Positions 19,101-22,100 of a stretch of DNA of 64,000 nt are shown here, in pieces. A program made the translations under genes and the position numbers. The notes beneath the pieces were generated by a model. The model was not told where the DNA came from. It saw only the letters and a list, made by a program, of their open reading frames with translations, and did not search any database. The stretch's first letter is position 1, and each line of letters begins with the position of its first letter. The DNA lies in the NCBI RefSeq assembly GCF_006345805.1, contig NC_043021.1:11842001-11906000 (forward strand), read 5' to 3'. The stretch is from Octopus sinensis (taxonomy: Eukaryota).

Positions 19101-22100
19101 TTGTAGGAAATGTTTCTGTTCTTTTGTGCAAAATATTTGTCATTTTTTATTTTAATGGTGTGTGTGTGTAAAATGACCCTGATGCAGTTACTGTTTATAA
19201 GTAGCACCCCCTGCAATCTCCCTTCTATTTACCTTACGTTAGCTGTAATATTTTTAAACAAAATGAGTCACTGGGTTGTGCACTAGCTCTTGGTCTGTGG
19301 GTGTTGTGCCTCGCCATCTGTTGATGTTTCACTTGCTAACATCATACCTCAGTTTCACATATCTTGGAAATTTGTCTGAACTATACTTGGAAAACACCAC
19401 ATCATCGTTTAACGTCCGCTTTCCATGCTAGCATGGGTTGGACGGTTCAACTGGGGTCTGGGAAGCCCGAAGGCTGCACTAGGCCAGTCAGATCTGGCAG
19501 TGTTTCTACAGCTGGATGCCCTTCCTAACGCCAACCACTCCAAGAGTGTAGTGGGTGATTTTATGTGCCACCGACACAGGTGCCAGACGAGGCTGGCGAA
19601 CGGCCACGCTCGGATGGTGTTTTTTACGTGCCACCGGCACGGAGGCCAGTCAATACGGTACTGGCTACGGCCACATTCGGATGGTTGAGGAAAGAAAAAC
19701 ATTCTCATGAAAATAACTTTGAAACCTGGTTTGGTTTCAATGTTGGCATGGAGTTTCCCGTCACTACATTCCATACTCTGGTCCACAAATGTGCTCTCTT
19801 CTCATTGTCTCCACCAAGACAACAATGATGGCCACCACCATCACTACTATAGCGCCCCCTCTTCAGAGTTGGCTGGTCTCATGGCCATTCTGCTCAGGCT
19901 CACTTGTCCTTCTTCCCTTTCCAACTGTATTGTGTCTAACCCCACCCCACCCCCTGCTGTAACCATTCCACCCATACCTTCCACCCTCTGAAAATTCCTC
20001 CCTATCCATATTTCTGTTTTTGTCCTGCATGTTGTTTAAAAGTAGCATAGCATTAACTTATTAACCTCAGAAGTCAGTAAGTTGGGGGTCTGTGATGACC
20101 ATGGGCACACAGCCCCTTTCTTCAGACAAAAAACAGAATCATCATCATCATCATCGTTTCGAGACCTTGATGTCCAGGTCAGAAAAGCAAAGTTTAAAGG
20201 AAATAGTAGTGATTTCCTTTGATTTCTAGACAGAAGCAAATAGGAAATAACATTTACAGACCAAAGACAAAAAACAATTTTTTTAATGTTACTAGTGTAA
20301 TCTGCATTAATTTATAAATAGGAACTTCAAATTTTTGTGGCTACCAGACTAGTTTACTGGGCAGCCCTGTTTCACAGTACTTTGCACAGTATCATTTATA
20401 CTTATGTACAGGAAGCTGTATTTTATTTAATTATTCAAGTAAATTTAATATTTATTTAGTGCTGAGAAGAGATGACCCTCAGTTTTGGAAAAATTGATAA
20501 TCTAGAAATGCCTTGGTACCAAAGGTTTTGAAAATCAGTGTTGTACCTGTATAATATAAGTGGCTGAGTATTCCACAGATATGTGGAAGTGTGTGGCTAA
20601 GTGGTTAGGGTTTTGGCTCACAATCGTAAGGTCGTGAGTTTGATCCCTGGTGGCCCATTGTATCCTTGAGCAAAACACTTGTTTCACATTGCTCCAGTCC
20701 AGGCCAGTCCAGTAAGCTGGTAGAAGTGAGTTGTACATACAATTCAAAGGGCCAGCCTTGTTACATTCTGTGTTGTGCTGAATCCACCCAGAGAACTGAG
20801 TTAGGGTACATGTGTCTGTGGGGTGCTCAGCCACTTGCACATTAATTTCACGAGCAGGCTGTTCCTTTGATCAGCTTAAATGAAGCCCTCATTGTGCCAG
20901 GAAGCCAGATTGGTTTAACACATTGAGACAAGGCTGGTCCTTAAAATTAGGGGTACGATACATCCAATAAGCTTTGATACATTTTCCATCTACCCAGTGC
21001 CATTCACAAGACCTCGATTGGGCCAAAGTTAGAGTAAAGACACTTGGTCAAGATATCACACATTGGGATCAAACCCAAGACTGCCCCATTATCTTTATAT
21101 ATAAAAGAGAGGTTGTGTGCTGTGTGTCTCCTACGATTTAGATTCCTAACTACTCCCACATTTTGCGGTGCAGTTTAACCAAAACCGGGTATCTTATAGT
21201 CGTGATTCATATTGAGCCCTTCTGGGTATTAGCGTGCGTCTACGATGAGTCTACGATTTAAAAAAAAATTTACCATCAATTTTTCCCATTTTTAATGCAT
21301 TTTTGGCATATATAAGGGAAGTAACTCTCTAAAAATTTATTATTAAATCTCAGAACGTATAAAGCTACAGTAACACTCCCCCCCCTTTGTGGTTAGCCAT
21401 ATTGAGATGGCTATTATACTTTACATCTCTAAAAATGCTTATATTGTTATTTCCCTTACAAACCCGGGCAACGCCGGGCGATACTGCTAGTCATTTATAA
21501 ATTCAAGATACGTGTGCTGTGTGTGCTTGTCTGGGAAGTGTTCATTCAATATCCGTCATGTTTGTTGAGTTTTTTTTTTGTTCTTTCTTTTATTTATTTA
21601 TTATTATTATTATTATTATTGTTTGCGGGGGGAACTTTCTTATTAACTCTTGAACTGTTATGATTAGACTGCAGTGGAGAAAATGGATTCTGGTAAGCAT
21701 CCTTCCGAAGAGAGCACCATGCCATTAGAAGCTAAACGCCCCCGCAACTCTGAGACTGTGGAGCCAACATCACCAACTTCTGAAAAGAAAGCAGAGGTAA
21801 AATTTAATCAAGTCTGGGACCATTAACACTTACTTCTTAACGATCTCTTTCAACCACTTGCTTAATTTTTTCCTTGTTTATTCCCTCCAACCTTTTTTAC
21901 CCTTGTAAAATTTTTTTTTTCAGTATATATTTTTCCCTTTTTTTTTGTATATTCATTTTTACTCCCTTCCTGTACTGCGACTATATATATATATATATAC
22001 AGATCGCCATGTTGATTCGCTAGCCTCTGCACGCATTTTTTTTCTCTCCCTGTTTCTCTCCGTGTTTCTTTTCTGTGTATCTTTCTGTTGAAGAGCATAG

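Follow-up and report, generated by a model that had tools for sequence, protein, structure and literature searches.

The window, a stretch of 64,000 nt from the genome of Octopus sinensis, contains a whole argininosuccinate lyase (ASL) gene on its + strand. The gene consists of 18 AG/GT-bounded exons between positions 1132 and 50632, the translation of which is identical letter for letter to the 515-residue protein P0004, named as Octopus sinensis ASL by its source. The following features are relevant for the analysis:

1132..1150, + strand: coding part of ASL exon 1, from the exon chain; its first ATG is M1 and it ends in phase 1
17813..17835, + strand: ASL exon 2 (23 nt), with the second in-frame ATG (M11, motif MSEE), ending in phase 0
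21648..21667, + strand: weak splice acceptor of exon 3, with 11/20 pyrimidines and TAG
21668..21796, + strand: ASL exon 3 (129 nt, phase 0/0), encoding residues 15-57, a predicted disordered arm
21693..21698, + strand: internal donor-like GTAAGC, out of frame, giving a truncated product of 29 residues if used
21734..21745, + strand: KRPR (K37-R40), candidate classical monopartite NLS by motif match, kept in other cephalopods
21764..21775, + strand: PTSP (residues 47-50), weakly supported proline-directed kinase-like site by motif match
28792..28899, + strand: ASL exon 4, from the exon chain, in which the conserved enzyme starts (KLWGGRF); joined to exon 3 in transcript contigs
30226..50632, + strand: ASL exons 5-18, from the exon chain with domain and motif matches, encoding the catalytic core with intact signature motifs

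ASL is a homotetramer that is normally found in the cytosol, and the signature motifs of the family are TGRSRND, GYTHxQ, [15 protein letters not shown], and YNKDxQED. All four are present in P0004 as well as in P0005, P0006, and P0131. By its domains and motifs, P0004 belongs to the ASL family, with scores of 331 bits for Pfam Lyase_1 and 89.6 bits for ASL_C2, both above the curated cut-offs, and a match to human ASL with an E value of 2e-197. The octopus core is thus orthologous to the ASL/delta-crystallin family (Pfam Lyase_1 and ASL_C2; PDB 1k62, 1aos), from which the protein differs in that 60 extra residues precede LWGGRF, compared to a median of eight in 112 non-cephalopod relatives.

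Regarding the beginning of the gene, there is no ATG in the region 912-1131 upstream of the exon 1 ATG, and an in-frame stop is located close 5' of it. Exons 1 and 2 share an identical 12-nt sequence coding for MSEE (1132-1143 and 17824-17835), which results in two in-frame starts and could reflect a small exon duplication. Both M1 and M11 are kept in Argonauta, and the model of O. bimaculoides begins at the second methionine. In the O. vulgaris model P0003, exon 3 is joined directly to exon 5, so that the 108-nt exon 4 with LWGGRF is absent. An exon 3-5 joint was not seen in the transcript runs examined, and the absence of exon 4 from P0003 is likely a gap of the gene model.

Exon 3 (21668-21796, +) is stop-free, flanked by AG and GT, and encodes 43 residues including [10 protein letters not shown] and PTSP. 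The first-pass annotation had described this segment as rich in S, T, E, and P with both KRPR and PTSP, which was borne out: these four residues make up 24 of the 43 positions (56%), and the net charge of the peptide is -2. Its further description as a disordered tail was correct with respect to disorder, as AlphaFold2 predicts residues 1-67 with a pLDDT below 50 and without secondary structure (from a 16-row alignment, which may partly lower the pLDDT), and incorrect with respect to position, as the segment forms an N-terminal arm. A Pfam search of exon 3 returned no family, and residues 1-60 had no usable match by features in the ESM Atlas, where every TM score was below 0.5. A repeat origin of exon 3 was rejected because the genome G000 gave a single match, exon 3 itself, which does not thereby prove its rarity.

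The NLS-like motif claimed for this segment was also recovered: KRPR at residues 37-40 is the single match in P0004 to the core monopartite consensus K(K/R)x(K/R) (PMC6360766). The full class 2 consensus (P/R)xxKR(not D/E)(K/R) is matched in P0006, P0125, P0127, and P0134 and is unmatched in Octopus and Argonauta, where an acidic residue is located two positions before the lysine. Chance levels were estimated from 100,000 shuffles of the exon 3 peptide and from 826 stop-free 43-codon blocks of the window. The loose pattern K[KR]x[KR] occurred in 7.9% of the shuffles and in 40/826 of the open blocks, and exact KRPR, a pattern chosen after KRPR had been seen, in 0.07% of the shuffles. For the kinase-like site, the respective frequencies were 79% for [ST]P and 12% for Px[ST]P. 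Thus, neither the loose NLS pattern nor PTSP exceeds chance on the octopus sequence alone. KRPR itself is barely beyond chance on this basis, and the case rests on the comparison across species. The suggestion that the segment is phospho-regulated via PTSP was not supported, because such sites are common by chance and because Px[ST]P is absent from Argonauta and from the sister clade described below, the inserts of which do not even contain [ST]P; PTSP is retained in a related species (run X22), but neither in Argonauta nor in the sister clade.

The use of exon 3 in Octopus was followed in transcript runs. Of the 24 runs listed, 19 contained all nine sampled words, and eight of the 24 were examined. 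None of them is recorded as RNA, and their nature was only guessed; they do contain spliced molecules, because the joints span GT..AG introns. In each of X1, X7, X10, and X3, one contig (1248, 1724, 1703, and 809 nt, respectively) carries the exon 2-3 and the exon 3-4 joints. The joint 17835 -> 21668 across a GT..AG intron was found in 4/4 of these runs at the same depth as the exon 3-4 joint. In X12 and X22, the sole contig on exon 4 runs on into the end of exon 3. X22 represents a related species, in which exon 4 has five differences; the last 30 nt of its exon 3 also differ at five positions, changing three residues (by eye) while keeping PTSP. X20 had no contig, and the single exon 4 contig of X21 begins inside exon 4 and is uninformative on skipping. 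Altogether, exon 3 was included in 6/6 informative runs of the eight examined, which come from five studies with four organism labels; five of these six runs had been selected through exon 3 words. No exon 2-4 skip joint was found among the joints listed for the six informative runs, the contigs of which drop rare forms. At the protein level, all three Octopus models of the protein cluster and Argonauta carry the exon 3 segment. Inclusion is the main form in Octopus, beside which minor skipping may occur. The exon had been proposed to be a cassette exon that acts as a splice switch. It is real, expressed, and spliced, but the proposed skipping was not observed in Octopus, and forms that differ in the presence of such a segment were encountered in sister-clade cephalopods only. 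Introns 2-3, when screened with strict filters, contained no further candidates for phase-0 alternative exons, and in positions 1-29000 of the window, the sister-clade inserts had no match of their own.

Translation initiation does not offer an alternative route to a protein without the motif. Four in-frame ATGs (M1, M11, M20, and M32) precede K37, and the next one, M74, is located inside the core. As a consequence, the choice of start codon cannot remove KRPR, and an NLS-free product from a later start codon was ruled out. As all four pre-core ATGs precede it, KRPR is expected on essentially every Octopus subunit unless exon 3 is skipped.

The first-pass annotation had named conservation of the exon across coleoids as a check, and KRPR is indeed shared with Argonauta and a sister lineage of cephalopods; the exact motif occurs in P0002, P0003, P0005, P0006, P0125, and P0127. 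Between Octopus and Argonauta, 24/43 residues of exon 3 are identical, compared to 401/455 in the core. Within exon 3, the longest stretch of identity comprises nine residues and is centred on KRPR (p 0.047), and identity between the two at any four fixed columns is expected in 8.6% of cases anyway. A clade of Logan proteins, presumably from squid or cuttlefish, is sister to the octopods (support 100/99 in a 42-row tree). Within this clade, P0006, P0125, and P0127 (seven contigs) have a 25-residue insert with KRPR directly ahead of the conserved core, and P0128 (one contig) is without this insert at 0/455 core differences from P0006. A second pair consists of P0131 with a 17-residue insert and P0007 without it, at 1/455 core differences. 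The P0131 insert aligns to that of P0006 (p 0.0014), but its motif is degenerate (KQAR) and fails K[KR]x[KR]. P0124 and P0126 (35 contigs) were found in the short form only. These pairs of long and short forms most likely originate from alternative splicing. Exon 3 of Octopus appears to be homologous to the sister-clade insert, to which its similarity is modest (shuffle p 0.014 against P0006, and 0.078 for Argonauta, among eight comparisons made). In an unrelated 25-residue insert, KRPR would be expected in 0.07% of cases.

Among 158 proteins with a WGGRF start, nine have K[KR]x[KR] upstream, namely the six cephalopod KRPR proteins, two with KKGK abutting the core, and isoform X1 of Babylonia. 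The pattern was found in 0/16 other non-cephalopod tails of at least 20 residues, P0134 being left out. Ten molluscan clusters were screened for long isoforms, and a basic motif was present only in Babylonia X1. This protein (P0134, Babylonia areolata ASL isoform X1) has an alternative N-terminus at residues 1-28, in which PRKSKRQR matches the class 2 NLS consensus in full; the other isoform, X2 (P0052), is a short form, and P0134 rests on one gene model. Its similarity to the P0006 insert gave a shuffle p of 0.006 as one of the eight comparisons. Octopus, Argonauta, P0006, P0131, and Babylonia X1 have P-x3-K-[RQ]-x-R in common, a pattern derived from these very sequences. Because it also starts Babylonia X1, an isoform with an NLS may have arisen earlier or repeatedly in molluscs. 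When residues 1-70 of P0006 were used to scan metagenomes, the best five of 39 loci were not cephalopod-like and had no insert, and a search of shorter proteins gave six matches, none of which had the KRPR motif. The best reading of these comparisons is that cephalopod ASL has a putative N-terminal NLS arm that is mostly fixed in octopods and optional in their relatives.

From these observations, a nuclear import of octopus ASL is tentatively proposed as the best explanation, which we hold to be plausible rather than probable. Exon 3 is a routine part of the protein, and its predicted disordered arm would present KRPR as a classical NLS, by which part or most of the ASL would be imported into the nucleus via importin-alpha/beta. 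With exon 3 included, every ASL subunit would have a flexible arm holding the motif at a distance of about 20 residues from the core, and importin-alpha would bind KRPR. In the nucleus, ASL together with ASS1 would supply fumarate and arginine locally, as suggested by the situation in mammals; a nuclear purpose of ASL in cephalopods can be proposed by analogy only. G000 contains exons of both ASS1 and the importin-alpha-type Arm_3 domain. The ASS1 (argG-like) exons are located at G000:C1 140.27-140.29 Mb, and the three strong matches to importin-alpha Arm_3 exons are L007, L008, and L009, each on a different contig, in addition to five weaker ones.

A close precedent for such a signal is human SAMHD1, in which the same tetrapeptide forms an N-terminal NLS ahead of a metabolic enzyme (PMC3410799, PMC4098787). 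There, KRPR is necessary, transferable, and dependent on KPNA2/KPNB1; KRPR alone binds KPNA2 and moved GFP, GFP-muNS, and RFP into the nucleus (PMC3410799, PMC4098787). Octopus ASL is an unrelated protein, and in contrast to SAMHD1, its candidate motif is encoded on an exon of its own, is restricted to a lineage, and is acidic at position -2.

Alternatively, the arm could be inert or serve another purpose, which is a possible if somewhat unlikely explanation. It would be a tolerated, fast-evolving disordered extension in which KRPR has been retained by descent and chance or fulfils another role, such as a basophilic kinase site at the next serine, a docking site, or a splicing enhancer for the weak acceptor, and ASL would stay cytosolic. 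This would agree with the far lower conservation of exon 3 than of the core, including the five changes in the last 30 nt of X22, and with the finding that the loose motif occurs in 3.8-7.9% of random segments. The acidic surroundings of KRPR and the missing full class 2 consensus in Octopus and Argonauta speak against the NLS as well, as do the degenerate motif in P0131 and the short forms P0124 and P0126, in which no motif was seen. Furthermore, NLSs identified by pattern matching can fail in cells, as reported for residues 39-51 of RPS17 (PMC4390217). However, P0006, the flanks of which fail to align, again has exact KRPR and, four residues ahead of it, a proline, and a nucleotide-level splicing enhancer is not expected to preserve just four residues. 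The sufficiency of KRPR for import in published fusions (PMC3410799, PMC4098787) also argues against an inert motif.

A broader version of the import hypothesis, which we consider rather doubtful, is that coleoids have hard-wired a classical NLS onto ASL. It would be switchable by splicing in the sister clade (likely squid or cuttlefish) and fixed in octopods, ASL would largely be a nuclear source of fumarate and arginine, and the NLS isoform would perhaps be older or recurrent in molluscs. A comparable arrangement is known from the Drosophila dUTPase (bioRxiv 10.64898/2026.01.16.699898), for which one gene encodes a longer nuclear isoform with an NLS (Dut-N) and a shorter, NLS-free cytoplasmic isoform (Dut-C). 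The sister-clade pairs of long and short forms resemble this system, unlike Octopus, in which only the long form was seen; moreover, dUTPase is a different enzyme, and the localisation of the ASL forms is a prediction.

It is unlikely that exon 3 is a true cassette in Octopus, skipped in certain tissues or stages so that the NLS form would be accompanied by a cytosolic ASL of 472 residues without the NLS. The exon has the anatomy of a cassette, being frame-symmetric (129 nt, a multiple of 3, phase 0/0, AG/GT flanks). With a splice-site matrix built from the gene's own 17 sites, its acceptor scored -0.6 bits in a leave-one-out calculation, the lowest of the 17, the others ranging from 2.6 to 11.5, and its donor was the third-lowest (tied) of the gene. 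Skipping would keep the frame and place MSEE of exon 2 beside exon 4, resembling the short starts of most animal ASLs, and the sister clade has long and short proteins that differ at the same place. This is opposed by the absence of an exon 2-4 joint among the joints listed, by the single exon 4 contig in each of X12, X21, and X22, and by the lack of a protein without exon 3 among the three Octopus cluster members. The internal CTG|GTAAGC donor at 21693, which had been predicted to be out of frame and does leave an exon of only 25 nt and a product ending after 29 residues, could in principle form a poison switch that shifts the frame, triggers decay, and tunes the ASL level, but such a function is very improbable despite a score of 6.6 bits compared to 4.8 bits for the real donor (in the gene's own matrix, built on 17 sites only), as no joint from 21692 was present among the joints listed and the Argonauta protein differs at the donor position (DTGK).

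Nuclear import of octopus ASL, the explanation favoured here, would connect to reports on the mammalian enzyme. Mouse and human ASL were found in nuclei, where they make fumarate with ASS1, and this fumarate succinates SMARCC1 after DNA damage (PMC11272581). Phosphorylated ASL was described to supply fumarate, which acts on KDM5C, at the mutant TERT promoter (Shi et al. 2022, cited in PMC12879386). The enzyme is the same in the mammalian nuclear ASS1-ASL system, but the N-terminus of mammalian ASL is short, and Table 1 of a 2026 review (PMC12864887) lists no NLS for ASL. Mammalian ASS1 enters the nucleus under stress via importin 7, whereas cephalopod ASL would carry a built-in classical signal. 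In literature mostly outside subscription papers, no report on a cephalopod ASL isoform or NLS was found, and the accessible part of PMC13076209 gave no divergence date.

So far, nuclear ASL has been described as a stress- or cancer-linked behaviour of a mammalian enzyme without a mapped import signal. If the proposal is true, a conserved exon-encoded NLS on cephalopod ASL would make nuclear production of arginine and fumarate an evolved, built-in trait, and the identical cores of the naturally occurring long and short forms would allow a clean separation-of-function test. If KRPR is inert, exon 3 would merely encode a lineage-specific disordered extension.

Several further elements were observed in the window and elsewhere in the genome. 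Intron 1 contains a tandem array with repeat units of 178/378 bp (14295-15255), and a pyrimidine-rich minisatellite of 24-bp units directly follows exon 4 (28933-29259). Interspersed intronic repeats are matched by tens of thousands of transcript-run contigs. At 62339-63496 on the - strand, an open frame of 385 residues encodes a tandem C2H2 zinc-finger array (nine matched stretches) and represents a neighbouring gene. A second ASL-like ORF (L001:1480-3174, - strand; G000:C11, about 19.2266-19.2282 Mb) is intronless, encodes 549 residues from its first ATG, and is 47% identical to P0004 over 443 residues. Its N-terminus has a hydrophobic signal or anchor segment (mean hydropathy of 2.8 over 19 residues) followed by a stalk with N-glycosylation sequons, and this N-terminal part matched only itself in G000. 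The histidine of GYTH is replaced by valine, the MPQKK loop is lost, and the protein has a very long branch in the tree. By its sequence, this ORF appears to be an ASL retrocopy that is catalytically dead and either secreted or anchored in the membrane.
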